From positions 32,001 to 96,000 of the IMG/VR virus record IMGVR_UViG_3300031251_000003: a stretch of DNA of 64,000 bases, one strand, 5' to 3'. A model generated the notes under the pieces. That model did not search any database and had not been told where the DNA came from. It worked only from the letters and a program-made list of their open reading frames with translations. Origin of the DNA: a virus. The position numbers were made by a program, and so were the translations under genes. Shown in pieces: positions 3-27,539 of the stretch (the stretch's first letter is position 1; every line of letters begins with the position of its first letter).

Positions 3-3000
3 AGTGAAGCACGCTTTGCATGGGGGCATGGTTATGAAAATGGTTATGAGCTTTATGGTCATCACAGTACTCCCGATGTAAACGCTCATGCTGAAGCAGC
101 CCTAGCTTACTTCATCAATAGTTTTCAGCAAGAGACTAGCAAGACGGCTGGTGAGTATACTCCCATGGTCAAGGGTATCCGTGGTCGATGGATCTTACTC
201 CACGATGGAACTGTGTTGAGTGACGATGATCCAGGGACGATACACGCTCAGATTCTATTAGACAATGGAGCAACACCGGATCAGATAAAGGATATTGGAT
301 TCGATGATGTCAGTCTGCGGAAGTACATTGATAACTATTACACATTCTATAACAATGTAAAGCAGGATCAAGAGCGCCAGCGTAATAGCTCAACTGATCA
401 GTGGGACAACATCCAGCCTGTCGATGATTCTTGTTACCTCGTTGCTGCTGATCTCTCTCATGAGTACCCAGAATTGCATTATGAAGCTGGTCAATATGGT
501 GATCAGGGCGAACATGCGTGGCTACGAATGGATGATGGAACAATCATTGATCCTACTCACGGTCAGTATGATGAGAGCAAGCCGATGAATATTGTCAAGC
601 CCAATGATCCAGCCCAGAAACTGTATAAGTCGTGGGCTACTAATCCTAACATGACTACTGATTGGAATAATTACCCAGAAGAGTTTATGGATGATCCCGA
701 TGATCCATTACACTGGTTATTTAGAGGAAAGCCAGGTCATCCTCATTCTGGCCCCGATGAGTTTGATGGAGCAATGGCTCCCAAGACGGCAGGCTGGGAA
801 CAACAGCAGCTTAACCCCGACGCTCAGTATATATGGGTAAGAGGTAATAAAACCACAGTAGCGGCACCAACATGGTACTCTCATGGCTCATTGATCCAGT
901 GGCTTCGAGATCATAATGAAGAACCATTATCCACGGGCAATATGTCATTGGGTAAGGACTTACCCGCTAATACTGTCGTGCTTCTATGGGAGGATGATGA
1001 GACAGGTGATAAATACTCAAAGGCAAGCTCAACTGTCACGGTACGAGATGATCCTCATCCCAAGAGCTTTATCTGGACATACGATGTGAACAAGGATCAT
1101 TTCACGGTAGGCAATCGTGACTGGTATCACACACGCTACTGGCCATCTACTGATGGTGGTGTAGTGTGCGGTGGTGTGAATCCCGATGGAGTGTGGAGCT
1201 ATGATGACTCCACCAATAAGACTACACCATCCGAAGCGAAAGCATTGATGCAGAATCTATTGGATCAAGGACTTCAAGAACAACTAACCAACAAAACGAG
1301 CGCTGTGGTTCCCAATCCTACAGAACCGTGGAATGATCCAGCATGGTTGAAGCAATGGCAGGATAGAGAGGACGAAGGAGGATTCTATGGTGATCATCGT
1401 GAGATCGCTAATCCTTATATCCCGTTCTTGGTCATGGAAGATGGCAGAACCTGGATAGGCTGGGACTATGCTTCACATGCATATGAATGGATGGTCGATG
1501 AAGCAGAAGAAGAGTTGAATATTGATTACAATGCAATGAAGGATTCACAAGGATCTATCAACTTCGCGGATCAAGAGTATGAAGTTCACTGGCCCAATCA
1601 TGGATTGCATAGAGAGCTAGAACAACAGATCGTAACCGAGATAGTCAATGATGTAGAGGATGAACGCAAGCGGGCATTCGAACGGGGTAGATTGGATGAC
1701 AAGACAGCATGGGTAAAGACGGCGACACGAGTGGACGTATCTAATCCCGAGGATCTAACACAATGGCGCTGTGGTTTATGGGTATACGATGAGAAACAGG
1801 ATCACTTGGTCTTGGCCCCGTATTTCTCACACTATCCGTTTCATGCCAAGCTGATCCGAGACTACATGTGGGACTTCGAACCCAATGATCGAGACTATGA
1901 GGCTCTAGTAGCTGGACAATGGTGGCTCAGAAACAACGACTTGGTTGTGGCCGAAATATACCCGGATGATAATGAAATTGAAGGGCCAATGAAAGATATG
2001 ATCGAGGGCTACATTAGTGAACATCTACAGACAGAGACAACGGCTGGATTGAATGGTGATCTACCCGACAACCTGCGGAACATTCCTTTAACAGAGAACG
2101 AAGGATGGTGGGGAACATACATCACCGATGTACCCGTGAGTACCGATAGACTGAGTAGAGATGTACTAACGACTTCCCCCACTCCACTCTCCAGACGTGA
2201 TGAGCAACTGACTCACAGGAATTCGGCATATATAAACACACATGAAAGTCAAGGCTTGACATACACTTCAAGTTATGCATCGGATCCAACAACCCCGCAT
2301 GAATACACAAGTAATATAACATCTGCCCTAGGGCTAGACACCATGCGGCACACTAACACCCCTATAGGCAAGTACCCCCACCAAGGTTGCCCCTCTAGGG
2401 TACCCCCGTGGCATAAAAGAGAGTACCTTTCCGCAAATGGAGAGGTTCCAGAGGTCGAGGACACAGGGGCAAGAACCGCAAGTGATACCCCTTGGTGGGT
2501 AGTGGCAGAGCCAGGGGAGGAACCGAACCAAATAGCATGGGTGGCGGATCTGAACACAAGAACGGTCTATGTAGGCGAATGGCATGGAGAGATCTTCAAG
2601 TCCCTCATGGGCCTCAACTACGATCACACAACGGATGAACAAGCGGAAGAAACACCCAATCTTGCCACGGGAAGAAGCTGGACACAGTTCTACGGAACCG
2701 AAATGAGCAGGGAACAAATAAAAGAGATGCTTCAAGCCATCCACGATTACTACGAACAAAGAGCCTACCATTTTTCTACAGATATTTTCCCCAGGGTTGA
2801 GGACATCCAGGCTTCCCCTAACAGCAAGTTAACGGCTCTATTCGAGGATATCAACGGTACGACGGCCTTTGCATGGAGTCCCGAACAACTCATTCAGGGC
2901 CACAATCATCGTTTCATTATCATGAAGATCCGAGATCAGGGGCTGGATCCCAATGACTTCACCTACGGATGGAAGAATGGAGATCACTTCTATATCCATT

Positions 3001-6000
3001 CATGGGATCATCAGGACTTCCAGGCCGAACATCAGATACTTGAGTGCAAGAAGGCTTTAGAGGCGATGGGACTCCACGATGAGGATGGGCCTTCCTTCCA
3101 GGACACTGGTAAGGTCACCGGTACACTTGAGCAACAGATTCACCCAGGTTGGGGAGGACAATCGCTTATCTATTTCCGGGGAAAACAGTATAGCGCCCCG
3201 ACTCATGCCCAGAATTTCAGAAAGCTTATTGGCGATGGAGCCTCATCGGAAGAGATCCTCCATGAAGGTATCCCCGGTGCCCGTTACTTGGATCCAGGTG
3301 CACAGAGACGTATAGGGAAAGTGGCGGCAATAAACGAAATTCCAGTAGAAACAGCGGGGATGCATCCATGGGGAGATGAACCCTTTATCTACTATGCACC
3401 GACCAATACTGTGTATGTTGCAACAAAATCGGGAAGGCATGGAGACATCATGCGCTGGATACAGGATCACGACCCGGAAACGTTCGCCCTGATTACCGAT
3501 AGGAGCACGGGATTGGACGCTTTCAAGAATATCTTCTATGGAGAATTCGTTCCTTTACATGAATGGAGGGGAGAAGTGGAGTCCGGGGAGATAGATTACT
3601 TCACCGCGAGCGGTTCAAGGTTGACATCCGATGAGGTACCGGAGGAACTCAAGCAATGGGCCGAAGCCCGTTGGGGCAATGTCACATCCAAAGTAATAGA
3701 GTCTCATCCGAGTCTCCATATCGTGGACGTAGATAACTACAGTAGTAGGATTGAAGGGCTTGAGCGTCCTGTATTACAACGGGAAGGCGATTCTAATCTC
3801 TATGTTGGACTGTATGGTGGAGGGCATTGGGATCTAGCTAGTGTCGCTGGTATTCCTTTTGATAATATTTTAACACAAGGATGGATCGATGAAAGTGGAG
3901 AGTTTAACGCTTATTCGATAACCACAGAGGCTTACGATACACTGGAAAATGCAGGATATAACCCAGTCAGTAAAAATTGGGAAAGAACAATCGAAGATAA
4001 AGTAGAGTCTCATTTATCGGGTATCCAACTCACCCAACCCAATGAACCAAGGGATATTGATAATCCCGGTGTTAGGTGGATAAAGACCCAGGATGGAACC
4101 TACTACACCGATGAAGAGGAACCGGTCATGACTCATGCCCATCTAGTTCACCGCTACAAGATTCCCTTGGATAAGATAGTCGATGTAGGCGTGGACGATG
4201 ATAGCCTCTGGAAATACTATAGCGGTTGGTATCAGAACCATCTACCCACAGACTTTATAGAGTCTCATAAAACAGCTACTCAACTAATACCCATTGATTT
4301 GGACGATTCATCTTGGCATTCCGAACCCGCTTGGATCTATGATCCTAATAAGGATCTTCTTTACGTTTCTACCGGAGCCAGTCACCACGCAAGACTTTTC
4401 CATAGTATCCTTGGAGATGACTACGGAGACACAGATGCGATGAAGACCGGTTGGATCGATCTGGATAACAACTATGTAGCCTTTGTTGACGAGGATGAAG
4501 AATCGGCATTCGCGAACAATATCACGGCCATATTCTCTCGTTATTACGATAGGGAAATGAAGCCCATTGATGGAAATACTTGGATGGCCAAGTATGGATC
4601 AATAGAGTCTCATAAACAGGGTGCCAACATAGGGGAACCTGACCCGAACAATCAAGGGAAGTTCATGGAAGGCAGTCAGCCATTTATTTACTACAATGGC
4701 GATTTCTATTGGGGTAAGGGCGCTGAACACCATCCCGATATTCTACGAACTAACATGCTTTATGGTAAGACTCCATTATTAGCTGGTTGGGTTAACTTTC
4801 GCAAGAAAGAAATCGGTCTATGGTCGGGGAACGTTACACAGGATCGTACCATCGAAGATGAGGTAGCCCGACAACTACAAGAGCAGTTCCCGGATTTCGC
4901 TATAGATAAAGGCTTTCGTTTAGGGGCGGTAACCTCTTGGAAGATCGAGGTTCTCCCCGAATCGACTGGACGGAGAATAGATGACAGAGTAGCCTGGGTA
5001 GCAGATCAGGATTCTCATACAATCTATATCGGGGATGGTTGGTTCCATGGAGATATCTTCAAGCAGATTGGAGAATTAAATGTTGATCATGCCGGAGATT
5101 TACATTGGAGACAAGACAAAACATCAGCATTATTGGCAGGAAGTATCTGGAAGAATAACATCTTACTCTACGGAAAATCGGGTGAATGGAACCCGTCTGA
5201 TGAGGCAGAAGTCTACGACACTATAAAGGACTGGTATCGGGAAGAAAGGAGCGAAGATGTGTCCACCCATCAGCTTCCAAATGTCCACGCAATGTACCAA
5301 CAAAGTCGAGTGATGGATATCGATGATCCGATCAACGGTAGACCACAAGAAAAGCCCTTCAGTTTCATCTACTACAACGGCGATGTATTCGTTGGATACC
5401 TCCACACTCACCCGATGCTTGTCTCCGATATGGCGGGTATGGGAATTAAGATATTAGATAAAGCCAACACAGCGGCGGGTTGGGTAGATACAGCTAATCG
5501 AGTAGGTATGTTCTACTCCTTTGAACAGCAATGGCTAAATCGTAGTAGTGAAGAAATCCAGCAGATTCAAGCCAACGAAGAAGATGCCAAGAGGCAGTTG
5601 GAGTCATGGGTACCGGGATTGGAATGGGTAAACCCCAATGATTATCTCAGACGAACCACAGCAACAGAGTGGAACTACCAGAGTGCTTTCTGGTATAGCC
5701 CTAGAACGGGACTACTCACAGGTAAAGCTGCCCACTGGCAGCTAATCGGGGATGCTCTAGCTAATCTCCCCTACGAAGAACGAGAAACTATAATGCAGCA
5801 TTCTTACTTGGGTTGGATCTTCGAGTCCGAGGGAGGCAAAGAGAAGGTAGCCGTTCCTGCATCAGTGGAACACAACCTTGACCCTACTCTTGAAGAAGAG
5901 GCTAGAGAGGCTTTGAAACAAGAGGGAATCACCCTAGGTGATCCACAACCGGGGATGTTCCAGTTCGATAGCGAAGATTATCCCGCTGAAGACTATCATC

Positions 6001-6386
6001 TTGGACGTTTAGCAACTGAAGTAGTCGATATTCCCGAAGTTGAAGAGGAAGACTATCAAGAAAGAACCCGTAGGAAGCCTTTTGTCTACAGTCCGAGGGA
6101 AGATAAGCTCTATATTGGCCCTTATGGGAGTCATCATGTGGAATTAATCTGGAAAGCATTCGGAATGAATGATGATCCTTCGACCCCTGGTTTCGACGCC
6201 AGAGAGGAAATAGCGATGAATATCGAGGACGATCCGGGCAATCTTGGGGTTATTTTGGTAGATCAGGTCACAAATGCACCATATTTAGTACATTGTTTCG
6301 GTGATCCGAGCGATAAATGCCTCGAAGCCTTGCGTTCTACCTTCCCCGGTGTTAGAATAGAAGACGAGAACTGTGAGGTTATCTAA
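3..6386 (+). CDS. Giant modular protein (>2127 aa, 5'-truncated) with ~17 His-module repeats and one papain/transglutaminase-like domain; putative virion-internal polyprotein
   Basis: Frame is open from nt 3 (SEARFAWGHG...SKTAGEYTP) into the tracked ATG at 165. Recurring pattern [FW]-[IV]-Y/W...[LI]Y[VI]G...H..[LI]...G[WY][IV]; modules separated by KTA/KVA/RTA-like linkers. Confidence 0.8.
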   Translation, partial: SEARFAWGHGYENGYELYGHHSTPDVNAHAEAALAYFINSFQQETSKTAGEYTPMVKGIRGRWILLHDGTVLSDDDPGTIHAQILLDNGATPDQIKDIGFDDVSLRKYIDNYYTFYNNVKQDQERQRNSSTDQWDNIQPVDDSCYLVAADLSHEYPELHYEAGQYGDQGEHAWLRMDDGTIIDPTHGQYDESKPMNIVKPNDPAQKLYKSWATNPNMTTDWNNYPEEFMDDPDDPLHWLFRGKPGHPHSGPDEFDGAMAPKTAGWEQQQLNPDAQYIWVRGNKTTVAAPTWYSHGSLIQWLRDHNEEPLSTGNMSLGKDLPANTVVLLWEDDETGDKYSKASSTVTVRDDPHPKSFIWTYDVNKDHFTVGNRDWYHTRYWPSTDGGVVCGGVNPDGVWSYDDSTNKTTPSEAKALMQNLLDQGLQEQLTNKTSAVVPNPTEPWNDPAWLKQWQDREDEGGFYGDHREIANPYIPFLVMEDGRTWIGWDYASHAYEWMVDEAEEELNIDYNAMKDSQGSINFADQEYEVHWPNHGLHRELEQQIVTEIVNDVEDERKRAFERGRLDDKTAWVKTATRVDVSNPEDLTQWRCGLWVYDEKQDHLVLAPYFSHYPFHAKLIRDYMWDFEPNDRDYEALVAGQWWLRNNDLVVAEIYPDDNEIEGPMKDMIEGYISEHLQTETTAGLNGDLPDNLRNIPLTENEGWWGTYITDVPVSTDRLSRDVLTTSPTPLSRRDEQLTHRNSAYINTHESQGLTYTSSYASDPTTPHEYTSNITSALGLDTMRHTNTPIGKYPHQGCPSRVPPWHKREYLSANGEVPEVEDTGARTASDTPWWVVAEPGEEPNQIAWVADLNTRTVYVGEWHGEIFKSLMGLNYDHTTDEQAEETPNLATGRSWTQFYGTEMSREQIKEMLQAIHDYYEQRAYHFSTDIFPRVEDIQASPNSKLTALFEDINGTTAFAWSPEQLIQGHNHRFIIMKIRDQGLDPNDFTYGWKNGDHFYIHSWDHQDFQAEHQILECKKALEAMGLHDEDGPSFQDTGKVTGTLEQQIHPGWGGQSLIYFRGKQYSAPTHAQNFRKLIGDGASSEEILHEGIPGARYLDPGAQRRIGKVAAINEIPVETAGMHPWGDEPFIYYAPTNTVYVATKSGRHGDIMRWIQDHDPETFALITDRSTGLDAFKNIFYGEFVPLHEWRGEVESGEIDYFTASGSRLTSDEVPEELKQWAEARWGNVTSKVIESHPSLHIVDVDNYSSRIEGLERPVLQREGDSNLYVGLYGGGHWDLASVAGIPFDNILTQGWIDESGEFNAYSITTEAYDTLENAGYNPVSKNWERTIEDKVESHLSGIQLTQPNEPRDIDNPGVRWIKTQDGTYYTDEEEPVMTHAHLVHRYKIPLDKIVDVGVDDDSLWKYYSGWYQNHLPTDFIESHKTATQLIPIDLDDSSWHSEPAWIYDPNKDLLYVSTGASHHARLFHSILGDDYGDTDAMKTGWIDLDNNYVAFVDEDEESAFANNITAIFSRYYDREMKPIDGNTWMAKYGSIESHKQGANIGEPDPNNQGKFMEGSQPFIYYNGDFYWGKGAEHHPDILRTNMLYGKTPLLAGWVNFRKKEIGLWSGNVTQDRTIEDEVARQLQEQFPDFAIDKGFRLGAVTSWKIEVLPESTGRRIDDRVAWVADQDSHTIYIGDGWFHGDIFKQIGELNVDHAGDLHWRQDKTSALLAGSIWKNNILLYGKSGEWNPSDEAEVYDTIKDWYREERSEDVSTHQLPNVHAMYQQSRVMDIDDPINGRPQEKPFSFIYYNGDVFVGYLHTHPMLVSDMAGMGIKILDKANTAAGWVDTANRVGMFYSFEQQWLNRSSEEIQQIQANEEDAKRQLESWVPGLEWVNPNDYLRRTTATEWNYQSAFWYSPRTGLLTGKAAHWQLIGDALANLPYEERETIMQHSYLGWIFESEGGKEKVAVPASVEHNLDPTLEEEAREALKQEGITLGDPQPGMFQFDSEDYPAEDYHLGRLATEVVDIPEVEEEDYQERTRRKPFVYSPREDKLYIGPYGSHHVELIWKAFGMNDDPSTPGFDAREEIAMNIEDDPGNLGVILVDQVTNAPYLVHCFGDPSDKCLEALRSTFPGVRIEDENCEVI
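3697..4613 (+). repeat. Four exact copies of TAGAGTCTCAT (3697, 4003, 4258, 4603)
   Basis: Read directly. All are in frame (encode I/V-E-S-H); spacings 306, 255 and 345 nt. Confidence 0.9.
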
Positions 6387-8233
6387 TGTTGACGACACGT
6401 AGGCCAGTAATCCCACCTAAAGGCGGTGTAGCTTATTGCTACCTCGATGGGAACATTTACTATGAGACAGAAGGATCTCATATGGAACTCGTACGACAGA
6501 TGCTTGACCAGGGGATTCCTAGATCAGCACTCGATGCATACGATCCGGGGTACAGCGCCATCTTTGGTTATATCTGGAATACAAGTGATACAGAAGAACC
6601 AAAATATGTAAATGATCAATACTCTGATATCTACTCTAACACGAAGGATCCACAGAAGACAGCGGAACTGAATTCTAAGTTACGTGCTTTATTTCCAGAC
6701 ATCACAACAGACACCAGTGGCCCTTACTTCGAGCCAGTAAAATGGACATTGAGCCACATTTCTGATACAATAGATCCAATGTCCGATATGACACCTATTG
6801 AGACGGCTATCCAAGGAGAACCTGCGGCTTCCATGGCTATTCGTGCGCTGAATCAAGCAGGCGGACGGGTATTTGTCGTTGGTGGTGCAGTTCGCGATGC
6901 CATCCTGGGTCACGCACCCAAGGACGTAGATCTCATGGTTCAAGGTCTGGATGGCGATGCTATCGAGAATGCGCTTAAGGGTCTGGGTAGACTGGACTTT
7001 ACGGGCAAGCAGTTCGGTGTGTATCGCTTCAAGAGTGGAACCTCTGAGGTAGAGATTGCTCTGCCCAGGACTGAGGTTTCTACTGGCCCTGGCCACCAGG
7101 ATTTTCAGGTTACCACAGATCCTAACTTGGATCCCGAGCAGGATCTGGCCAGGAGAGATTTCACCGGTAACGCTATGGCATATGAGCCTGCAACCGGTCA
7201 ACTCATCGACCCTTACGGCGGTGCAGAGGATCTTAAGAATGGTACTTTGTCACTTGTAAATGACAAGGCATTCGAGGATGACCCTCTCCGTGTCGTTCGT
7301 GCATTGGTTGCTAATGCGCGGTTCGGCCTTGAGCCGGATGAGCAGCTTAAGCAATCACTGGCCGATAACGCTCAGAAGATCAAGCATCTTCCGGGTGAGA
7401 GAATTCAGGCAGAGCTTGATAAGCTCCTGTCTGCCCCTGACCCTGCTAAGACGATCAGCCTTGCGGAGCAGAGTGGTCTGATCCCGTATCTGTTCCCTGA
7501 GCTAGAGGCGGCTGTTGGATTCGATCAGCACAATCCTCACCACGATATGAACGTCTTCGATCACACTTTGTCGGTGCTGAAGAAGATGTCTACACTTAGC
7601 AACGATCCTGATATGAGACTCGCTGCGCTGTTCCACGACTCCGGTAAGCCCGAGTCGTACTGGAATGACGAAAATCACGGTGGCAACGGTGGTGGCCACT
7701 TCTACAAGAAGGTACTCCACGACGGAACTGTCATTGGTGCCGACCACGAGGATGTGGGCGCACGTAACGTTCGGGCATTCATGACGAGGATGCGTTACCC
7801 TAAGGATCGTATCGACCGTGTAGAGAAGCTGATCAAGTTCCATATGTGGAACTACTTCAACTCCGAGAAGGGAGCGAGGAAGTTCCTCCGTGCTCTGGAC
7901 GGCGATACCAAGATGGCCTTTGATCTTCTGGCTATCCGCGAAGCCGATTCAAGTGGTAAAAGAGACGGAGAGCCGAACAACTACGATAGAGAGATGATCG
8001 ACAAGGATCGTCAACTACTCCAAGATGTAATTGCTGGTCATGATGCCGGTGAACAGCACGCATTCACGATTAAAGATCTGGCCGTCAATGGTCACGATCT
8101 GATCTCTCTTGGTCTAAAAGGCCCGGAAATTGGTAAAACTCTGAACTATCTGCTCGATCTGGTCATTGATCATCCTGCTCTGAATGAGAAGGAAACACTC
8201 ATGAAAGTAGTCGATGAGGGTGTCCGGGTATAA
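6386..8233 (+). CDS. cca: CCA-adding tRNA nucleotidyltransferase with HD domain and an extra N-terminal His module
   Basis: VGGAVRD...DVD, DLARRDFTGNAMA, EDDPLRVVR, ERIQAELDK, HH..DHT...LFHDSGK (HD), C-terminal LAVNGHDL...GPEIG. Confidence 0.93.
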   Translation: MLTTRRPVIPPKGGVAYCYLDGNIYYETEGSHMELVRQMLDQGIPRSALDAYDPGYSAIFGYIWNTSDTEEPKYVNDQYSDIYSNTKDPQKTAELNSKLRALFPDITTDTSGPYFEPVKWTLSHISDTIDPMSDMTPIETAIQGEPAASMAIRALNQAGGRVFVVGGAVRDAILGHAPKDVDLMVQGLDGDAIENALKGLGRLDFTGKQFGVYRFKSGTSEVEIALPRTEVSTGPGHQDFQVTTDPNLDPEQDLARRDFTGNAMAYEPATGQLIDPYGGAEDLKNGTLSLVNDKAFEDDPLRVVRALVANARFGLEPDEQLKQSLADNAQKIKHLPGERIQAELDKLLSAPDPAKTISLAEQSGLIPYLFPELEAAVGFDQHNPHHDMNVFDHTLSVLKKMSTLSNDPDMRLAALFHDSGKPESYWNDENHGGNGGGHFYKKVLHDGTVIGADHEDVGARNVRAFMTRMRYPKDRIDRVEKLIKFHMWNYFNSEKGARKFLRALDGDTKMAFDLLAIREADSSGKRDGEPNNYDREMIDKDRQLLQDVIAGHDAGEQHAFTIKDLAVNGHDLISLGLKGPEIGKTLNYLLDLVIDHPALNEKETLMKVVDEGVRV

Positions 8234-8417
8234 TATACACGACATTTTAGTTCGCCGTGGTGCTCACTTTGCAAATCCAGAGGACTGGTGGTATTGGGCC
8301 GGATGGCTCGATGTTCTCTATGGTAAATGTACAATCAATTACCCAAAGCAACTATCCTACGCCAGGGCATATGAAATGGGTATGGCTGATGCTAAAGGTG
8401 AATTATGTATAACTTAG
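8214..8417 (+). CDS. Small Y..GW.D / MGxxDAKG family protein (Rmf-like)
   Basis: DWWYWAGWLD...AYEMGMADAKGE; paralogous to neighbours. Confidence 0.7.
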   Translation: MRVSGYNIHDILVRRGAHFANPEDWWYWAGWLDVLYGKCTINYPKQLSYARAYEMGMADAKGELCIT

Positions 8418-8590
8418 ATCAAGTTTCCATGTTTAGACAACTTTACACAGGCCCAGACTTCTGGTATTGGACTGGTTGGATGGACTATATTAGTTATGGG
8501 AATGTTCATCGACCCAAAGAACCTGAGAATCTTACGGCTTATCTGATGGGATATGCCGACGCGAAGGGTGAAGACTATGGCTGCACCTAA
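8405..8590 (+). CDS. Small Rmf-like family paralogue
   Basis: DFWYWTGWMD...AYLMGYADAKGED. Confidence 0.7.
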   Translation: MYNLDQVSMFRQLYTGPDFWYWTGWMDYISYGNVHRPKEPENLTAYLMGYADAKGEDYGCT

Positions 8591-8846
8591 TCCATGGCGG
8601 AAGAGTCTCGAAGAGATTGGTCAACTTCAACCTATAACCACAAACAAAGACCCTAATCTGCTGAATGATTGGTGGTATTGGGAGGGGTGGAAAGATGTTC
8701 TTAACGGAAGGAAGGATTGGTTTACCAGTCCTCAGAACAAGGGGGACTATAAGGCTTACGATGATATCTTGGTTAGCTATCGATTAGGTCGCGCTGATGC
8801 TTCAAGAGACGAGCTATGTGAAGCAGACGATGCTAACTACACTTAA
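8553..8846 (+). CDS. Small Rmf-like family paralogue
   Basis: DWWYWEGWKD...SYRLGRADASRD. Confidence 0.7.
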   Translation: MPTRRVKTMAAPNPWRKSLEEIGQLQPITTNKDPNLLNDWWYWEGWKDVLNGRKDWFTSPQNKGDYKAYDDILVSYRLGRADASRDELCEADDANYT

Positions 8847-9067
8847 GGTCGAGGATCGACTAGATATGTCTTCATATATGCACCATGATCAAATCCATCA
8901 TCATACGCTTGCTGAAAGACATCCCACGGTGCTGGGAGTGCTCTCTTCACGAATCCTTCTTGACCGTCCGTGACTCCGTAGTTATACCATGTTGAAGGTA
9001 ATGGCATCGGTGTGTCGGCGGCGAATTCTAAGTCTGAAGTGTTCGGATCGAATAGAGGTTGTCCCAT
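8843..9067 (-). CDS. Small Rmf-like family paralogue, own late-type promoter
   Basis: WYNYGVTDGQEG...AYDDGFDHG; start lies within TAATAGATGATATGG. Confidence 0.65.
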   Translation of the reverse strand: MGQPLFDPNTSDLEFAADTPMPLPSTWYNYGVTDGQEGFVKRALPAPWDVFQQAYDDGFDHGAYMKTYLVDPRP

Positions 9068-9078
9068 ATCATCTATTA
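9064..9078 (-). promoter_or_regulatory. TAATAGATGA late-promoter-like motif
   Basis: 15-mer TAATAGATGATATGG is identical to 14622-14636. Confidence 0.55.
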
Positions 9079-9091
9079 GGGTGCGGTAGAG

Positions 9092-11262: not shown

Positions 11263-11289
11263 TGTGGAGATACAGGTTGGCGATGCTGC

Positions 11290-11314
11290 CGCCTCAATGG
11301 TTATTGAGGCGTTT
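11290..11314 (+). terminator. Possible intrinsic terminator (lies inside a possible 36-aa ORF, 11262-11372)
   Basis: CGCCTCAAT-ggtt-ATTGAGGCG followed by TTT. Confidence 0.4.
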
Positions 11315-14611: not shown

Positions 14612-14621
14612 ACCTAACACG

Positions 14622-20096: not shown

Positions 20097-20248
20097 AGAG
20101 ACTATTAGAGAAGGAGCGAAGCGGTCTTATTACGCATCGTCCATATCCGACTCATGCCGAACGTGTTGCCAAAATTAGACTCAAGGAACAACTCGAAGTC
20201 CAAAGAAAGATTGAAGAGTTGCGTGAAGCTGAGTCTAAAACAGAGTAA
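20042..20248 (+). CDS. Hypothetical coiled-coil protein
   Basis: Fills the gap; charged helical composition; start uncertain. Confidence 0.4.
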   Translation: MATDDSPDSGHSARLRAIERLLEKERSGLITHRPYPTHAERVAKIRLKEQLEVQRKIEELREAESKTE

Positions 20249-20426
20249 GCTGGTTCCAGACTTCGAAGTCCTTATTGGTCGCCCAAACCTGGGTACCATC
20301 TTCGAATTCTAGAATATAGATCTCAAAATGATTCTGGGGAGGTAAGGCGAGAGTCTTCACGACATCTGCCTTTTGACCTTTCTTCCAGTCATTGTGACGA
20401 GAATCTGATAGGAACCGTACTCTCAT
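20235..20426 (-). CDS. Small SH3-like hypothetical protein, leaderless
   Basis: ATG lies 6 nt after the -10 box of the promoter at 20433-20461. Confidence 0.6.
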   Translation of the reverse strand: MRVRFLSDSRHNDWKKGQKADVVKTLALPPQNHFEIYILEFEDGTQVWATNKDFEVWNQLTLF

Positions 20427-20432
20427 CTCATA

Positions 20433-20461
20433 AGTGTAGCACAAATAAGTATATTCTGCAA
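20433..20461 (-). promoter_or_regulatory. SigA/sigma70-type promoter
   Basis: TTGCAG-N17-TACACT with extended TG. Confidence 0.65.
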
Positions 20462-20522
20462 GCTTCCTAGCTCTAATAAGTAGAGTACTTCAACTAGAGG
20501 TTTAACGGAGTAGGAATAACTG

Positions 20523-23045
20523 ATGACACAGTTTGCATACGGGCAGCTTGAGAGCGCCTATCTTAATGTTAAGGAAGCAGCAAATGAACCATGGAGAGGA
20601 ATCACAGCTTGGGTTCAGGGAATGCCTTATCTCATCATCGACAAGAACGGTGAGAGTTTCGTATTAGAGGGCGAAGATGGTAACACCATCGAGCTAGAAA
20701 GATTTGAGAGTTGGGAACCCGCGACTGACGAGAGTAGTCTAGTCGCAGCAAGTCGTCTTGAAGGTTCTCCGTTTACTCGTGGAGTGAAGGTCGGTACGTT
20801 CACCGTAGGAAACCTTGTTTACTTTGAAAAAGAGTGGCAGGTTCGTGTGGGCGATACTGGTTTTACATTGCCACTTGAGAGATTAGTATCCAGATATGAT
20901 CAGGCACGGTGGGACAAGAGCGCCGATCTAATGCCCGCAATGGATTATCATTGCCCTGAATGCAAATCTCAAGACGTTATCCCTGATGCGGGAATGATGG
21001 TCTGTAAAGATTGTGGTTACTCTGGCCCAGAACAAGACTTTGAAAATGAACAACCTGATTATGATCCCACATTCGATGATCGAGCATGGTACGAAGATTG
21101 GAGTGGCCCGGAAGATCACGATGGTTACACTACTTCGGTAAAGCAGGCAGACTTTGAAGACGAACATCTATCACCTTCAGTACCTACGGGTGACGGTGGA
21201 GAGAACTGGAACACATTCGAGTACAATCTCCCGCCTCATGGTATCCACTTCAGAACCCACGCAGCTATGCAGGCCGCAAACATGCAGGCTAGAGTCCATT
21301 ATCCTCCTGGGGTAACAGATCATCATCCTGAAGGATTCACTAGCACCGTTCCTGGCCCTACGGCTATGGACGATATGATGATCCCAATGGATTATACGAT
21401 GAAGCACGGTGGTAGTCCTGAGGATATCGTTGTTCAGGTCGAGACTCCTAATGATCCAGAGCAGGTAAGACAGCTTATGGATCAGGTTGGTGGCCGTAGG
21501 AGTGCTAAAACAGCGGAAGTTGAAGAACCGATGAACGATCCTACCGTCGATACCCAGAAGGGATTGAAGTGCCCGAAGTGTGGATCCCATACTTTGCGAG
21601 CTTATTCACCCGAAGGTAACGAGGCAACTATCGTATGTCTGACTTGTGGTAATGAGTTCAAGAGAGACGTTCATTTTAATCCACAGTCATCCGTACGTCA
21701 GGCAACAATGCCCGTAGATCCTAACCTACACGCTCAGATTCTAGGACTCACTCAGCAGATACAGCAGGCTTATGAGCAGGGGAATACATCCCTGGCTCAG
21801 CAGTTGAATGCACAGCTTCAGCAGTTGCTCAATAACCCCAACGCGCCTATCAATCCTAATCAGTCTGTCATGACTTCTGGATGGAAGGTTGCTAATCAGT
21901 GGATTAGAAAGCGAGGGGATCAATGGTGCATCATTCAGAAGGGCACGGGTAAGGAACTATCTTGCCACGACTCCGAAGAGAAAGCTAACGCATCCTTCCG
22001 TGCTATGGAAATGCATAAGCATATGGGCGGTGAGTTCAAACCGGGTTGCTCTTGTGGTGGTAACTGTGGTTGTGGCAAAGGTGACAAGAAAACAGCAGTA
22101 GTCGATAATAGTCAATTGACTGACACTACTGAGAGGTTCTTCCTCGAATCTATGACTTTTGAAGCGACTGGTTTAGAAGAAGGAGATCGCTCAATTTGTC
22201 CGAGATGCAATGGACAATTAGCTCTTGATCCTTCTAGTCAGACTTTGAAGTGTCAGAATTGTGGTTATAATGGTGGCCCTTCGGGACAAAGGAATATGGA
22301 TTATGGCCCATTGAATCACACACAAATTCAGAGTTGGTACGATGGTGCCGATGATCCGTATCCTCCTGGCCCGGATCAAGTGAATCTAGATGACTATCAG
22401 GCCGAAGATCCTCAGGACTTCGATGATCGCAACATCGACTTCGCTCATTGCCCTGCTTGTGATGGCCCTGGTGTATTACTAGGCCAGCTTGGTTCTAGAA
22501 TTCATTACCGATGTCGTAACTGTGGTGTAGATTTTAGCCACAACACCGAGGGTAGTGATCATCAGACTCCTGGATTCACTAACGAAGCACCAGATCAATC
22601 ACCTGGAACCACCTACATGGGTAGTTACGAGGAAGTCAAAGAGGTTAACCAGAACACTCTAAAGGCATTCAAAGACTCAAGTGGAAATCCTTTGGAAGCT
22701 GGGAGACTCTACGTGCTCCATCATCCAGAATACAAGGTTCCCGATATTGTAAAGATCCTTAATCTAGAGGACAATCGTATCGAGGCAGCCATTGCATCGG
22801 ATGAGCATGGTTCATTCCCAATTCATATTACGCATGATGATGTTTTCACCCTAGATCCTTACGAGGATAAGAAGACGAGTAGCTGGAAGATCTCCCGCAA
22901 CAACATCAGTGCTCAGGAACAGGAAGACTTGATCAAAGAGAACATGGAAGGTAAGGCTCGCAACTTTGACAAGTTGAATCTAAGCAACACTCACTACCAA
23001 GTGAAAGAAGAATCAACTGATCCTTATTTCCTCCTAGGTATTTAA
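20523..23045 (+). CDS. Multi-Zn-ribbon head-associated protein
   Basis: Four CxxC...CxxC ribbons and a CSCGGNCGC motif; many K/R-x-A linkers; C-terminal EQEDLIKE..ARNFDKLNLSNTHY; strong RBS. Confidence 0.7.
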   Translation: MTQFAYGQLESAYLNVKEAANEPWRGITAWVQGMPYLIIDKNGESFVLEGEDGNTIELERFESWEPATDESSLVAASRLEGSPFTRGVKVGTFTVGNLVYFEKEWQVRVGDTGFTLPLERLVSRYDQARWDKSADLMPAMDYHCPECKSQDVIPDAGMMVCKDCGYSGPEQDFENEQPDYDPTFDDRAWYEDWSGPEDHDGYTTSVKQADFEDEHLSPSVPTGDGGENWNTFEYNLPPHGIHFRTHAAMQAANMQARVHYPPGVTDHHPEGFTSTVPGPTAMDDMMIPMDYTMKHGGSPEDIVVQVETPNDPEQVRQLMDQVGGRRSAKTAEVEEPMNDPTVDTQKGLKCPKCGSHTLRAYSPEGNEATIVCLTCGNEFKRDVHFNPQSSVRQATMPVDPNLHAQILGLTQQIQQAYEQGNTSLAQQLNAQLQQLLNNPNAPINPNQSVMTSGWKVANQWIRKRGDQWCIIQKGTGKELSCHDSEEKANASFRAMEMHKHMGGEFKPGCSCGGNCGCGKGDKKTAVVDNSQLTDTTERFFLESMTFEATGLEEGDRSICPRCNGQLALDPSSQTLKCQNCGYNGGPSGQRNMDYGPLNHTQIQSWYDGADDPYPPGPDQVNLDDYQAEDPQDFDDRNIDFAHCPACDGPGVLLGQLGSRIHYRCRNCGVDFSHNTEGSDHQTPGFTNEAPDQSPGTTYMGSYEEVKEVNQNTLKAFKDSSGNPLEAGRLYVLHHPEYKVPDIVKILNLEDNRIEAAIASDEHGSFPIHITHDDVFTLDPYEDKKTSSWKISRNNISAQEQEDLIKENMEGKARNFDKLNLSNTHYQVKEESTDPYFLLGI

Positions 23046-23057
23046 GAGGTTTAGTCT

Positions 23058-23627
23058 ATGCGTACCACGACTAATATCGGATTAACGGTATGGAATTTAT
23101 CCACGGATGCATTTGATCATACAATGCTTTCGGGCAATTGGGATCTTATTGATGCAATCGCCAATGCACCAGCGAATTCAATTTATCAGAGTTTAACTCT
23201 ACCAGTAAGTAGTAACTTCGTAGGGCGTATGGTTCTTCTTACTGGTGTCGATGGTGGATTTCAGCCCGGTACATTAGTCCGTTACGACGGAGCCAATTGG
23301 CAACCCGTTAATCGTATGGAAATCCAGCCTGCTATTCCTACTTTGGGAAACTTTCCAGGCCGTGTAATTATCTTATCGGCAACAAATGGTGGGTTCGCTG
23401 CTTGGTCTGTTATTAGATACGATGGAACTGCATGGAACATCGTTGGTGGATGGAATACCGTCAACACTGGTGCCGGAAGTACTAATATCAAAGGACTCAA
23501 GGTTGATAGCAGTGATGTCTATATCACAGATATCAACAGAGGATTAGTTCTATCTGATAGAACTAATGGTAACTTCTACCGCTTGTTTTTCACAGGCGGT
23601 AATCTAGTATTTGAACAGGTGACATAA
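23058..23627 (+). CDS. Virion structural protein (fibre-like, internal repeat)
   Basis: Two repeats NF.GR..L....GGF.....RYDG..W. Confidence 0.6.
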   Translation: MRTTTNIGLTVWNLSTDAFDHTMLSGNWDLIDAIANAPANSIYQSLTLPVSSNFVGRMVLLTGVDGGFQPGTLVRYDGANWQPVNRMEIQPAIPTLGNFPGRVIILSATNGGFAAWSVIRYDGTAWNIVGGWNTVNTGAGSTNIKGLKVDSSDVYITDINRGLVLSDRTNGNFYRLFFTGGNLVFEQVT

Positions 23628-24191
23628 ATGGCTACATTCATTGGGGATCCTCCCGGAACAGTTAAGCAGTTTGCAGGTTCAGTAGCCCCTACGGGCTATC
23701 TGATTTGTGATGGATCTACAGTTTCAAGAGCAACCTACGCTGCTTTGTTCACTGCTATCGGAATAGCCTATGGTGCTGGTGATGGATCAACAACCTTTGG
23801 CCTTCCAGATGGTCGTGGTCGAGTGTTAGTAGGTTTAGGTACTCATGCCGACGTGGGAACATTAGCCAATAACGAAGGTGCTTCATTAGGTGCTCGCCGC
23901 GTTAAGCACAAGCATACTAGTTCGTTCAGTGTCAATGATCCTGGACATAACCATGGTGGTGTCACGAGTGGCCCTAGTATTGGTATCCAGGAGCACAGTG
24001 TAGGTAACAACTCAACTTGGGGTGTATACTCTGGTGGGAATTGGGATCCTACACCGACATCTGCTCACACTCACACGATACCTTCTTCGGGAACATCGAT
24101 CAGTGTAACGGGGAATGTTGGGCCGCAAACTGGTAACGAACCAACCGATAGCGCAGCCTATTTGGTTATAACCCATATTATCAAAACGTAA
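23628..24191 (+). CDS. Phage tail-collar domain protein
   Basis: PGTVKQFAGSVAPTGYLICDGSTVSRATYAALFTAIG...FGLPDGRGRVLVG; ends in HIIKT. Confidence 0.85.
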   Translation: MATFIGDPPGTVKQFAGSVAPTGYLICDGSTVSRATYAALFTAIGIAYGAGDGSTTFGLPDGRGRVLVGLGTHADVGTLANNEGASLGARRVKHKHTSSFSVNDPGHNHGGVTSGPSIGIQEHSVGNNSTWGVYSGGNWDPTPTSAHTHTIPSSGTSISVTGNVGPQTGNEPTDSAAYLVITHIIKT

Positions 24192-24242
24192 AACTACTAG
24201 CAAGCGCGTGATAACTCAATAAGGAATTAATAGGAGAATAAA

Positions 24243-25016
24243 ATGATTTTTGAAATAGTCTCAGCACCTAAGTCCGATCTTCCAACTGAAGAGGCTCTAA
24301 TTGCAGCCCTAAGCAGAGAGAAGAAGGGATTTAAGGTCGAAAATATACATAGTGAGGGAGATAATTGGGTTGTACGCCTTGCGGCAGATGACAATCTACC
24401 TCCGTTTATGAAGAAGGATGAAGAGGATGAAAGCAAGGACGAAGCAGACGCGGACGATCCTGATGCAGATTCCGATGATGATTCCGAAGATAGCAAGGAT
24501 GACACAGACGACGACAAGGGTGGGGATAAGGGCGACAAACCTGCTAAGAATCCTGCCGCTGAAGTCAAGGGTGTTATCGACCAGCTAACAAAGCTATTCA
24601 CCGATCTTGGTGGTAAGGTTGACGAGCTACAGGCAGCACACGATGAGAAGGCAGATAAGCTCAAGGATATCGGTGACACCGTTGGCCCGGATGGTCATGA
24701 TGGCCCGCCTCCTGGTGACGTAGCTGACATTGGCCCGACTCCTGGTGGCCCTCCTGCACCGCCAATGCCCGACAAGGGATTTGACGGACGCAAGAAGCCA
24801 ATTCCTGGCTCGCCCGGTGGTGGACTTCCTACATTCACGAACTATCAGGTAGCTACTCATCCTGGCGTGGATGTTAATGGGAATAAGCTCACCCTCGTAG
24901 CTGCTTCTTCAGCACTTCAGGAAGATCCTGAGTTCGTCAACTACGATGTAGTTGGTGTTACTGAGAATTCTGATGGTACTTTCAGTGCCAAGCTTAAGCT
25001 GAAGACAACGGAGTAA
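24243..25016 (+). CDS. Acidic/Pro-rich head assembly (scaffold-like) protein
   Basis: D/E/K-rich tract, coiled coil and Pro-rich tract; just upstream of the protease. Confidence 0.55.
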   Translation: MIFEIVSAPKSDLPTEEALIAALSREKKGFKVENIHSEGDNWVVRLAADDNLPPFMKKDEEDESKDEADADDPDADSDDDSEDSKDDTDDDKGGDKGDKPAKNPAAEVKGVIDQLTKLFTDLGGKVDELQAAHDEKADKLKDIGDTVGPDGHDGPPPGDVADIGPTPGGPPAPPMPDKGFDGRKKPIPGSPGGGLPTFTNYQVATHPGVDVNGNKLTLVAASSALQEDPEFVNYDVVGVTENSDGTFSAKLKLKTTE

Positions 25017-25018
25017 GT

Positions 25019-25294
25019 ATGGAAGCTCTGGAAGCCAGAGAGATTGCTATTAGAGAATTGAACAGTTTGAGGGGAAGACTCTGCACGGTCATTGAATCGG
25101 CAGGGCTTCCCCAAAAACAAGAGAGAGCGATAGTTACATTGATCAAAAATGCTAGCTACCAGTCTCAAGCAGTGATTAGCGAGCTATTAGAAAAGCTCGA
25201 CAGTGGAGATATCAAATTCACTTACACAGAAAAATTGGATGGCCCATTAAATGATAACGAAATACGCGAACCTCGAACGTATATTAGAAGTTAG
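25019..25294 (+). CDS. Hypothetical protein
   Basis: 91-aa ORF within the head operon. Confidence 0.55.
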   Translation: MEALEAREIAIRELNSLRGRLCTVIESAGLPQKQERAIVTLIKNASYQSQAVISELLEKLDSGDIKFTYTEKLDGPLNDNEIREPRTYIRS

Positions 25295-27539
25295 AAGCAG
25301 TAAGAGCCGATTAGGTTTTACCGAATCTGAATCTGATAACCAGCGATTTGCAAAGTTCGCTGGATTGAATAAGGGAATTCGTGAAGAGGATGGTTATCTC
25401 TACGTTAGATGTCGGGCTATCTCATCTCGTGTAAACAAGAACAACGACGGATGGCCGTCCGAAGAACTATCGAAGTCGTATAAGACCTTTGAGAATCGTC
25501 CTATCTTTGTCGATCACAATAATGACAATCCGAATAGGACTCGTGGGATCATTGTAGCATCCGATCTACACGTAGAAGACAAGGAGAAGGTGTCTGCACT
25601 TGACCAGTATTACTCAAGTGCTCCTGATAACCATCTACCTCCTACTTGGATCGAATTACTTCTAGAAGTAGATGCTAAAACATTCCCGAAGTTGGCCAAG
25701 GCTGTCAAGGAGAAGCGAGTAGATGCTGTGTCGATGGGTGCTAATATCGATACGAGTATTTGTTCTGTATGTGCCCATGAAGCAGCTACTCCTTCGGAGT
25801 ATTGTTCTCACGTAAAGAAGAAGGGATCTACCTTCGAGATTACATCCGACAATGGAGAGAAGGTACACAAAAAAGCATACGAAGATTGTTATGGGATTAA
25901 CTTCTTTGAAATCTCATTCGTCTTCGATCCGGCTGATCCTACCGCTGACGTTCTAGACAAGCAGGCCACAACTAAATCTAGTTCTGAAGAATGTGAGCAC
26001 TGTAGCCATTCTAAATATGATCATCAAGACGGAAGAGGCCCCTGTGAAGAGGCAGGCTGCCACTGTGAAAGATTCAGTGAGTCCCGAGAATCTAGTTTTC
26101 AATTGGCAGAAATGGTGGGTCAAACTCTTTCACCTGAGCGTCTAGCTCAACTAAAGCAGTCTATTCCTTCAGCAGAGCAGTTCATGGCACCGAAGGGACA
26201 AGGACAGAATGATCAACCGAAGAATCGTAACTACATTCCTCAAGAAGATCTAGTAACTGCACCCCAGCATGTGGATACACTTCGCAACGATGAAGTGTGT
26301 CCAGTTTGTCATGCTTCCGAAATGGAAACAGGGGCAGATGGAATTATGACGTGCCCTATTTGTGGTCACGTACAAGAACCAGAACCTCTTAATAACCCTG
26401 ATCTTTCCTTAGCTCAAGACAATCAATTGCGCGAAGATCAGGCACAACCAGGCCAGCCTGTCACTCCTGTCAATGCAGATCCATTGGATGCTGTTGAATT
26501 CGATCATGAACAAAGTCAGATAAGCCAGCCTACTAGTACTACTAAAAGAAAGTATACTCCAAAGGGAATAAGTGATAACGCTATGTTTGAAACCAAATTA
26601 CGAACCACATCAAAAGAGGAAGCTGATAAGATGTTACCCGCAAAGGTAGCTCGAATCGAAACCAAATTAGGTAGTGGTATCCATCGTGGAATTTATGACG
26701 CTGCTCGTGAGGCTGGACTTAAGGTTAAGGTTGCTTATCCTGCGGTTAAATCATCCTCTGAAAATACAGTTGAAGTCCCTGGCGACAACGGAATCTTCAA
26801 CTTGTTTTATGCAGAAGAGTCTGCGATGAATCTAAATGTACCGATGAAGGATGTGCCTGTAGTAATTGAGGCCGCTTCAGAGAAGGATGCTCAGGCATTC
26901 TTGAAGATTTTGACTGAGACTGCATTACCGACTCGGAAGGTTCGTGCTGGTAATGACAAGCAGCCAATTCTACCGGGATCCAAGCCGACCGATGAGCCTA
27001 AGAAGGAGAAGATCATCTCTAATCCGACTCAGCCCGTCGAGGCAGCACTCAAGGAAGCTATTGAGCTTTCTGATGGTGTAGTTGAGATCGATGGTAATAA
27101 GTACAAGTTGAATCTAGTCACTGACGAGGTTGAGGACGATGAGGTCAAGGAAGTAGAGGCCGACGAGTCCAAGGAAGATGAGAAGGAAGATACCTCCAAG
27201 GAAGTAGAGGATACCAAGGAAGAAGAGAAGGATGACGAAGACCGCGAAAGCCGACTGTTGGCAGCATTCAAGCTTGCTGATATGTCAGTCGAGATGGGAC
27301 TAGTTACTCCTGAAAACAAGATGACATTGATTGCTGAACTTGAAGATGAAAATCTGGGTCAGCTAGATGTTCGTGAGAAGACTTTGATCGCTGTAAAGAA
27401 TGCTGGTCTATCCAAGCGCACAGCATCATCGGTACATGGCATTAAGCGAGTTCCAAGATTAAGTCACGCTGTTCCAGCGCTAAATGGCAGTACGAGTACG
27501 CCGAAGGAAGATGTCCCCTTAGAGGCGCTTTTCCTCTAA
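25251..27539 (+). CDS. Capsid maturation (prohead) protease with Zn ribbons and C-terminal scaffold-like region
   Basis: YVRCRAISSRVNKNNDGW..EEL..SYKTF..RPIFVDH, AVSMGA, FFEISFVFDPAD; acidic C-terminus; two genes upstream of MCP. Confidence 0.8.
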   Translation: MITKYANLERILEVRSSKSRLGFTESESDNQRFAKFAGLNKGIREEDGYLYVRCRAISSRVNKNNDGWPSEELSKSYKTFENRPIFVDHNNDNPNRTRGIIVASDLHVEDKEKVSALDQYYSSAPDNHLPPTWIELLLEVDAKTFPKLAKAVKEKRVDAVSMGANIDTSICSVCAHEAATPSEYCSHVKKKGSTFEITSDNGEKVHKKAYEDCYGINFFEISFVFDPADPTADVLDKQATTKSSSEECEHCSHSKYDHQDGRGPCEEAGCHCERFSESRESSFQLAEMVGQTLSPERLAQLKQSIPSAEQFMAPKGQGQNDQPKNRNYIPQEDLVTAPQHVDTLRNDEVCPVCHASEMETGADGIMTCPICGHVQEPEPLNNPDLSLAQDNQLREDQAQPGQPVTPVNADPLDAVEFDHEQSQISQPTSTTKRKYTPKGISDNAMFETKLRTTSKEEADKMLPAKVARIETKLGSGIHRGIYDAAREAGLKVKVAYPAVKSSSENTVEVPGDNGIFNLFYAEESAMNLNVPMKDVPVVIEAASEKDAQAFLKILTETALPTRKVRAGNDKQPILPGSKPTDEPKKEKIISNPTQPVEAALKEAIELSDGVVEIDGNKYKLNLVTDEVEDDEVKEVEADESKEDEKEDTSKEVEDTKEEEKDDEDRESRLLAAFKLADMSVEMGLVTPENKMTLIAELEDENLGQLDVREKTLIAVKNAGLSKRTASSVHGIKRVPRLSHAVPALNGSTSTPKEDVPLEALFL

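Follow-up and report, generated by a model that had tools for sequence, protein, structure and literature searches.

A Lys-Thr-Ala-type tag at the module junctions of a giant phage protein as a candidate cutting site of the head-maturation protease

The stretch of DNA analysed here, referred to as the window, comprises 64,000 nucleotides and corresponds to bases 32001-96000 of a 158,106-bp uncultured phage contig (IMG/VR record IMGVR_UViG_3300031251_000003). The window opens within a giant open reading frame (ORF), and the features of the locus are collected in Table 1. On the same strand, 3' of the giant ORF, lie the gene of a CCA-adding enzyme, four ORFs of 716-993 amino acids (aa) with few recognisable domains (ORFs 11396, 14633, 17856 and 20523) and some small ORFs. 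This same-strand block, to which the giant ORF belongs, ends with the genes of the protease (ORF 25251), the cement protein and the capsid protein, all three of the phage G / Myrna / Bxz1 / Eggerthella LE2-3 type. An earlier note, made from the letters of the window, had reported short [KRH]-x-[ASG] motifs at the domain boundaries of these ORFs and had proposed that they are polyproteins which are packed into the prohead, cut after K/R-x-A by the ORF 25251 protease and delivered at infection. Here, we describe a narrower tag, typified by K-T-A, at the junctions between the repeated modules of the giant protein, and we weigh whether it could be a cutting site of the phage's own head-maturation protease.

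Iterated hidden Markov model searches showed that the giant ORF is a tandem array of 22-26 copies of a His-containing alpha/beta module of ~105 aa. It also holds an N-terminal domain and one HNH domain, both encoded upstream of the window. The module runs from strand 1 through a Trp, a W-V-Y-D-P hairpin, L-Y-V-G, an invariant His opening a helix, a Gly and two strands to a C-terminal helix. The proposal that unrelated enzyme domains are strung together is true only in part, because ORF1 is mostly one repeated module. Searches of the giant ORF against Pfam and PHROG returned only the HNH domain and the N-terminal domain, the latter of unknown function. For the module fold, no convincing match was obtained with Foldseek against the PDB (best expect value, E, 0.4), in the ESM Atlas (template modelling score, TM, <=0.39) or in the VIA wide search (best Z 3.9).

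When 1.84 billion representative proteins were searched by profile, 236 family members (cluster representatives) were identified, many of them 2000-4900 aa long and with up to 29 module copies. The closest relative (G001), which was located via the protease locus, encodes a 3504-aa ORF with 17 further copies. The module profile had no match in phage G, Myrna, LE2-3 or the genomes G002-G006, an IMG/VR search with peptide patterns from a segment of the giant ORF gave no match, and in a tblastn search of the giant ORF against cultured phages the N-terminal domain alone was matched among the matches listed. The first ~125 residues of the giant ORF (phrog_12251; genome 24233-24620) are its best-conserved part, and in phiCbK-like Caulobacter phages they are represented by a small protein of their own (47% identity). 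A distant family member, P0146 (contig L019, region 6377-12025), is encoded among very large ORFs that follow one another (998, 1882 and >1742 aa), one of which matches 2',5' RNA ligase / 2H phosphoesterase; this suggests that there are whole arrays of such giant proteins.

All of the motif strings listed in the earlier note were found in their ORFs, and the counts of [KRH]-x-[ASG] were compared with residue shuffles. The chance frequency of this pattern here is ~1 per 35-45 residues, and ORFs 11396, 14633 and 17856 carried it at that level (15, 19 and 15 occurrences vs 15.5, 21.4 and 16.7 expected, respectively). ORF20523 (26 vs 19.4; z 1.7) was the fourth of the six ORFs in which the motif is at chance, and an excess was observed in the protease ORF (33 vs 23.2; z 2.3) and in the entire giant ORF (127 vs 105; z 2.4). 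Its individual positions were also drawn too widely. Counting P3, P2 and P1 as the three residues of the tag and P1' as the residue that follows, His at P3 had a ratio of 0.95 in the junction zone of the family modules, Gly at P1 was 1.5-fold enriched there as against 7.2-fold for Ala, and a middle residue other than T, V, I, L or M only 1.27-fold.

A tighter pattern, [KR][ILVT][GA], was derived from the capsid-protein site and the protease ORF alignment, the giant ORF being unused for it. It occurred 30 times in the giant ORF against 12 expected (p 9e-6), which placed this ORF at the top among 182 genes, and eight times in the protease ORF against 2.9 expected, while the remaining genome was near expectation. 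In an unbiased scan, KTA came first among all tripeptides of the giant ORF (8 vs 0.62 expected, p 3e-7), AWV second and KVA third (7 vs 0.58 expected); KTA was the rank 4 tripeptide in the 3504-aa relative. The scan was also run on a family pool of 148 independent proteins (201,872 residues), formed without the window's own protein and its nearest relative. There, KTA was the most over-represented tripeptide (171 vs 26.8 expected, p 3e-77), above the module's own core motifs, and was accompanied by KVA (89 vs 28.7) and RTA (73 vs 30.2); KTG, KVG, RIG and H-x-A were not enriched in this pool. The logo of the family sites is [LF]-[SAG]-[KR]-[TVI]-A-[ASTG], with Trp at P7-P8, Phe/Leu at P5 and a small residue at P4. 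The tag consists of Lys/Arg at P3, Thr/Val/Ile at P2 (Leu, or Ile in the capsid protein) and Ala at P1 (Gly in the capsid protein), with a small residue at P4 and usually at P1'. Self-cleavage at the Thr was considered and dismissed, as half of the sites have Val or Ile at P2.

The placement of the tag relative to the modules was then analysed. Nine of the 13 ORF1 sites listed in the earlier note are module junctions, and its statement that the sites lie at domain boundaries was borne out for this ORF. Across the giant ORF, 16 of the 30 sites lie 0-45 aa ahead of a module hairpin, mostly 21-30 aa ahead, where random placement gives 6.4 +/- 2.2; none of 5000 random placements reached 16 sites. 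The random trials were beaten in both genomes, with 12 of the 18 sites in the closest relative lying in the same interval vs 4.0 expected. In the family, the sites peak 20-29 aa ahead of the hairpin, and over 535 internal modules they are 7.2-fold enriched in the junction zone. The HNH domain of the giant ORF is likewise bracketed by two sites, RTA-1068 and KVA-1207. The tag is no part of the module fold: 51 of the 55 modules that start a protein are without it, and many such proteins open at strand 1, a few residues from the place that the tag would take. A global alignment of the giant ORF with a 4516-aa relative (P0123; 35% identity) aligned 0 of 21 sites, with the modules out of register, and it says nothing either way.

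AlphaFold models were built on paralogue alignments. The single-module model (predicted local distance difference test, pLDDT, 78) showed K-T-A after a disordered stretch, with strand 1 only 1-2 residues further on. In the model of two modules, a 5-residue coil leads from the C-terminal helix to strand 1 of the next module; it contains K107-I-A109, and the pLDDT dips there to 54.

The first ~235 residues of ORF 25251 match head-maturation proteases (PHROG 18299, 'head maturation protease', at 6e-19). They are 32% identical to the phage G homologue, and tblastn matches of 22-30% were obtained to jumbo-phage 'prohead core protease' genes. In an alignment with seven IMG/VR relatives, His89 and Ser161 were invariant across the 8 homologues, whose extensions are 500-600 aa long. 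Two sites resembling the tag flank the extension. At the first (KQA), [KR]-x-[AS] is found at or within one residue of the same point in six of nine relatives compared, including phage G gp19 (E-KVA-S). At the second (RTA), each of the 8 homologues in the alignment has [KR]-[TV]-[AS], ~37-40 aa from the end; Myrna gp97 and LE2-3 gp71 contain equivalent sites. The conserved C-terminal tail behind it is a candidate capsid-binding anchor, and we infer a scaffold role for the extension.

Two further features of this protease were observed. Directly after the catalytic Ser-Met-Gly, at aa ~165-190 (window 25730-25820), the domain contains a Cys-x-x-Cys ... Cys-x-His insertion. It does not vary across 8 homologues, which include phage G gp19 and Myrna gp97, and it looks like a zinc ribbon inside the head protease. 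In LE2-3 gp71 (L001 20001-23114), which is annotated 'tRNA synthetase', the protease match is split between aa 1-138 and 526-596, and therefore ~390 residues are inserted mid-protease. These residues could represent either an intein or a domain inserted there, and the public annotation is probably wrong.

The capsid protein provides the link to a measured cut. N-terminal sequencing showed that the mature phage G capsid protein gp27 comprises 255 of 282 residues (PMC5646251), and the cut therefore falls at ...VALA|QAM (A27|Q28), with a matching predicted mass. The capsid protein of the window is homologous to gp27 at 28% identity (Hua et al. 2017, PMC5646251; PDB 6WKK), and the measured N-terminus maps to RIG|E; the aligned bond is RLG|Q in Myrna and KVA|Q in LE2-3. 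In the 119 capsid-protein homologues where the anchor was located, P3 is K/R throughout, P2 is I/L/V and P1 is G/A. The mature N-terminus of phage G is the sole experimental anchor, and it shows that the clade cuts after a small residue, not Glu. Phage G differs from the phage studied here in that its residues at P3-P1 are A-L-A and an Arg stands at P5, and no His-module protein was found in it. The tag was further identified in the N-terminal region of the portal (R-RTA-S, aa 64-67), and a 300-aa ORF between the terminase and the portal, which has no module, ranks 2 for the tag in this genome.

Three module-free relatives (Myrna, LE2-3 and G005) were subjected to a blind per-protein ranking by the 4-residue pattern [KR][TVI]A[SGAT] or the 3-residue pattern [KR][TVI]A. 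The protease fusion gp97 took rank 1 of the 170 genes of Myrna, and gp87 came next with the 4-residue pattern. In LE2-3, this 4-residue pattern placed gp74 at the top (ten KTA/RTA sites, p 6e-6), followed by gp71 (the protease fusion), gp68 and gp76, and all four genes lie between the portal and capsid genes. The protease fusion of G005 was rank 2 with the 4-residue pattern and rank 3 with the 3-residue pattern, and its top ten also included portal-flanking proteins and a large ORF upstream of the protease. Rank 1 in G005 was a putative gene, a 106-aa ORF on the opposite strand (91625-91945, L042) with four [KR][TVI]A[SGAT] tags (p 4e-7). The tag is thus concentrated in the protease fusion and the neighbouring head-cluster proteins of the three module-free relatives. 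A literature search found no paper on LE2-3, and the Myrna capsid paper is without cleavage data.

Table 1. Genes and tag sites of the locus (positions in the window; dashes in site names set off the three tag residues)
Feature	Position	Strand	Description
ORF1	3..6386	+	last 2127 aa (45%) of the 4717-aa giant ORF, genome 24233-38386
Junction tag S-KTA-G	141..149	+	giant ORF aa 2637-2639
Junction tag P-KTA-G	783..791	+	giant ORF aa 2851-2853; 16 aa before module hairpin
Double tag KTA-WV-KTA	1701..1724	+	giant ORF aa 3157-3164; precedes module
Junction tag A-RTA-S	2472..2480	+	giant ORF aa 3414-3416
Junction tag G-KVA-A	3318..3326	+	giant ORF aa 3696-3698
Junction tag H-KTA-T	4269..4277	+	giant ORF aa 4013-4015; site in single-module AlphaFold model
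Tag D-RVA-W	4986..4994	+	giant ORF aa 4252-4254; abuts hairpin strand directly
Tag E-KVA-V	5844..5852	+	giant ORF aa 4538-4540
Tag G-RLA-T	6006..6014	+	giant ORF aa 4592-4594; 24 aa before last module hairpin
CCA-adding tRNA nucleotidyltransferase	6386..8233	+	N-terminal extension of ~160 aa
ORF11396	11396..13546	+	716 aa; T-KVG-T at 12125-12133
ORF14633	14633..17614	+	993 aa; G-KVG-A at 15320-15328; R-KLA-V at 16868-16876
ORF17856	17856..20096	+	746-aa fusion; V-KLA-D at 18969-18977
ORF20523	20523..23045	+	840 aa, zinc-ribbon-rich; three KTA/KVA sites (p 0.02), 0 conserved in relative
Protease-scaffold fusion (ORF 25251; scaffold role putative)	25251..27539	+	762 aa; protease domain ~aa 40-235 (25368-25955); rest a long, acidic, zinc-ribbon extension
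Release-site-like D-KQA-T	25959..25967	+	aa 237-240; 10 aa past protease domain
Maturation-site-like K-RTA-S	27417..27425	+	aa 723-726; 37 aa from C-terminus
Conserved C-terminal tail	27426..27536	+	ends acidic-x-x-A-L-F-L; A-L-F-[LM] kept in homologues
Cement / minor capsid protein	27603..28157	+	PF23968, homologue of Myrna gp98 (PMC7150772); without tag
Major capsid protein	28171..29139	+	322 aa; HK97 fold type of phage G, Myrna, Bxz1
Capsid-protein site Q-RIG-E	28321..28329	+	aa 51-53; aligned with phage G bond A27|Q28

The four mid-size ORFs had been regarded as motif-rich polyproteins, and none of them is individually enriched; each holds one to three candidate sites. The T-KVG-T of ORF11396 opens a domain homologous to the one that starts at KVA-367 of the giant ORF, and the relative has K-T-A there, offset by one residue. 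The KVG and KLA sites of ORF14633 correspond to RVA and KTA in the relative amid poorly conserved flanks, and R-KLA-V lies ahead of a SWIM-like region common to Myrna gp96. The first ~368 residues of ORF17856 form a stand-alone 323-aa protein in the closest relative, and V-KLA-D is located three residues past the end point of this protein; a KIA of the same ORF is kept in the relative. The added C-terminal half of ORF17856 carries a PEP-utilisers mobile domain (swivelling phosphohistidine).

A C-terminal stretch of ORF20523 (22812-23006) is also present at the end of Myrna gp96, and LE2-3 gp68 ends in a sequence that looks similar by eye. The stretch reads E-Q-x-x-L ... A-R-N-x-D-x-L-x-L-x-x-T-H-Y, and the N-terminal parts of the proteins are unrelated. 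Myrna gp96 and LE2-3 gp68 are head-cluster proteins, and the shared stretch may be a head- or portal-docking element. These resemblances are the best hint that ORF20523 is head-associated. The mid-size ORFs are at best minor members of the system.

Head-protease cleavage is the best reading of the tag because, besides the module junctions, the tag is found at capsid, protease-scaffold and portal positions and in the head-cluster proteins of module-free relatives. That the tag is a recognition and cutting site of the phage's own head-maturation protease is, on this comparison of sequences, a proposition that we consider evenly balanced. The earlier idea of cutting by the ORF 25251 protease is supported to this extent, although its motif was too loose and its four mid-size ORFs are not enriched. 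The protease would be the N-terminal domain of ORF 25251, recognising a basic, a beta-branched and a small residue in succession. It would trim the 53-residue leader of the capsid protein at RIG|E, cut itself free, its release-like site being KQA|T and its maturation-like site RTA|S, and clip the N-terminal region of the portal at RTA|S. Cuts at ~22 junctions would split the 4717-aa protein into fragments that each hold one or a few His-modules (~105-570 aa); one fragment would hold the HNH domain between RTA-1068 and KVA-1207. The sequences show the tag itself, its place at the junctions, its conservation throughout the family and its concentration in the head-cluster proteins of four genomes. 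From these we infer that the cut falls after P1, that ORF 25251 supplies the protease, that the giant protein has entered the prohead by then and that its pieces depart together with the DNA. The scheme as a whole, in which a 530-kDa polyprotein is loaded into the procapsid, diced at K-T-A by a UL26-like protease-scaffold into ~20 small proteins and sent out with the DNA, is put forward tentatively, and we regard it as somewhat doubtful.

Several observations weigh against cutting by the head protease. The tag or a close variant is present at only ~37% of the 535 internal module junctions, and only 16 of the 71 large family proteins have at least three canonical junction sites. The linker, of ~5 residues, is wedged between a helix and a strand and leaves a protease little room, and one family protein opens with M-S-K-T-A, where no cut is needed. 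The sites of the presumed substrates differ in detail (K-T-A in the giant protein, R-I-G in the capsid protein): the latter usually has Gly at P1, whereas the tag of the giant protein needs Ala, and the phage G capsid site has Ala, not Lys/Arg, at P3. ORF 25251 gave no match to Pfam peptidases even at E up to 10, and sequence and profile searches against PDB chains matched no protease; it is unplaced by sequence in any solved or Pfam protease family. The giant ORF carries no recognisable capsid-targeting tail, its module was not found in any cultured phage searched, and a complete relative with the same protease is without any module. The protease is 19 kb from the giant ORF, with the CCA-adding enzyme in between. 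The portal and large terminase are located at genome 144-151 kb, ~64 kb off around the circle, and so the giant ORF is distant from them, with the CCA-adding enzyme adjoining it; the 'head region' under which the earlier note had grouped these proteins is therefore a loose label.

In the main rival reading, the tag is never cut and serves as a conserved structural inter-domain linker, comparable to the T-G-E-K-P of tandem zinc fingers, that caps the preceding helix and sets strand 1. The fixed phase of the tag, 20-30 aa ahead of the hairpin, the shortness of the linker, the strict Ala at P1 in contrast to the capsid-protein site and the protein opening with M-S-K-T-A all favour such a role, and the upstream preferences (Trp at P7-P8, Phe/Leu at P5, small P4) point to a contribution from the end of the module before it. 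A module linker, however, would not account for [GSA]-K-T-A-[SA] in the module-free LE2-3 gp74, gp76 and gp68, in Myrna gp97, in portals and in the C-terminal region of the protease, nor for the clustering of the tag in head-cluster proteins of module-free phages. The tag also stands on both sides of the heterologous HNH domain, ahead of non-module parts of ORF14633 and just past the fusion point of ORF17856, and the modules that start a protein fold without it. We consider the linker unlikely on balance, though it deserves to be taken seriously. Alternatively, the tag might be cut by another protease, of the host or of the DUF2201-type metallopeptidase encoded at genome 14779-16299, or cut in the cytoplasm, the giant protein then being an intracellular polyprotein that is neither packaged nor ejected. 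The second peptidase-like protein is encoded adjoining a MoxR-type ATPase, the giant ORF stands beside the CCA-adding enzyme in a block whose genes are not all structural, and the missing capsid-targeting tail would fit as well. Against this, the tag occurs at those positions of the capsid protein, portal and protease-scaffold at which the head proteases of other phages act (PMC10052503), in Myrna, LE2-3 and G005 its enrichment goes with the protease fusion and the neighbouring head-cluster proteins, and the other linker codes looked for here, [LF]SSG and R-[ILV]-[AG]-Q, are absent. Cutting by another protease thus appears improbable.

It remains to be considered whether the pattern reflects chance together with selective reading of a degenerate motif. 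The high background frequency of [KRH]-x-[ASG], the shuffle-level counts in ORFs 11396, 14633 and 17856 and the lack of conservation in the relative of most sites listed for ORF20523 all speak for it. The unbiased tripeptide scans, both of the window's protein and of the 148 family proteins, speak against it, as does the module-relative placement, which beat all 5000 random trials in two genomes. Chance is refuted for the giant and protease ORFs and still stands for most of the sites listed in the mid-size ORFs; as an account of the tag in general we find it very improbable.

Among known systems, the proposed head protease most resembles in layout the herpesvirus UL26 protein (assemblin, MEROPS S21). 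In UL26, the sites end in Ala followed by Ser/Thr, the maturation site lies ~37 aa from the C-terminus and the tail binds the capsid protein (PMC4498786). In both, a site directly follows an N-terminal serine protease domain, a scaffold-like extension comes next, and another site lies ~25-40 residues ahead of a C-terminal tail; in ORF 25251, this arrangement is a sequence pattern, with an N-terminal His/Ser protease, an extension, a conserved tail and release-like and maturation-like sites that match the Ala-small pattern. Unlike UL26, the phage protein has no detected sequence similarity to assemblin, and its P3 is basic, whereas the preference at herpes sites is for Val, Leu or Tyr at positions further upstream. 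Herpesviruses also have nothing that corresponds to the giant non-scaffold protein, in which the phage tag is repeated ~22 times.

The prohead proteases T4 gp21, phiKZ gp175 and SPN3US gp245 cut the capsid protein, the portal, themselves, the scaffold and internal proteins at a short motif, and some of the products are ejected (PMC10052503, PMC5694885). The proposed system is similar in having a single head protease with many substrates and a short motif. T4 and phiKZ had been cited as precedent, and in specificity they do not serve as one: T4 gp21 (S77) and phiKZ gp175 and SPN3US gp245 (S80) cut after Glu (A-x-E, S/A/G-x-E; PMC10052503), whereas P1 here is Ala/Gly. The candidate ORFs do not follow the Glu rule of phiKZ and SPN3US, [ASG]-x-E being found 135 times against 128.8 expected (z 0.65). 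Nearly all known cuts in T4, phiKZ and SPN3US remove N-terminal propeptides, whereas here a 26-module chain would be dissected. Polyvalent proteins (Iyer et al. 2017, PMC5512222) are very large multidomain phage proteins for which packaging, release by proteolysis and delivery alongside the DNA have been proposed. They contain different effector or anti-defence domains, often with an Ard or methylase domain, their own zincin peptidase, or a MuF or portal anchor, whereas the giant ORF consists mainly of one unrecognised module and one HNH domain. Pfam and PHROG searches detected none of their hallmark domains in it, and it does not have their multi-effector composition. The junction tag here points to the head protease rather than to an embedded peptidase.

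If head-protease cutting is confirmed, a basic / beta-branched / Ala rule would be defined for the head protease of a large, little-studied lineage (phage G, Bxz1, Myrna, LE2-3 and many metagenomic relatives). This rule would be unlike the Glu rule of T4/phiKZ and like that of herpesviruses, so that the phage G / Bxz1 head lineage would share the herpesvirus 'cut after Ala' rule and the phage-herpesvirus link would be strengthened in both substrate recognition and protease-scaffold layout. Capsid-internal proteins would become predictable, and capsid cargo readable, from sequence. A new giant-protein family would also be defined, with 236 cluster representatives that reach ~4900 aa and 29 module copies.

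The remaining observations concern neighbouring genes. A promoter/terminator scan of window 6000-25500 gave a signal below chance. The CCA-adding enzyme contains Q-KTA-E at 6656-6664 (aa 91), where the relative has R-S-A. Its extension (window 6386-6870) showed a weak match to the His-module (aa 16-43, E 0.07); the orthologue of this enzyme is 757 aa long, and a 1235-aa version is present in the complete relative G005. Just 3' of the capsid gene, a paralogous pair of ORFs (window 30137-30673 and 31415-31957) carries an endonuclease VII / HNH-like N-terminal motif, and these two are probably homing endonucleases.

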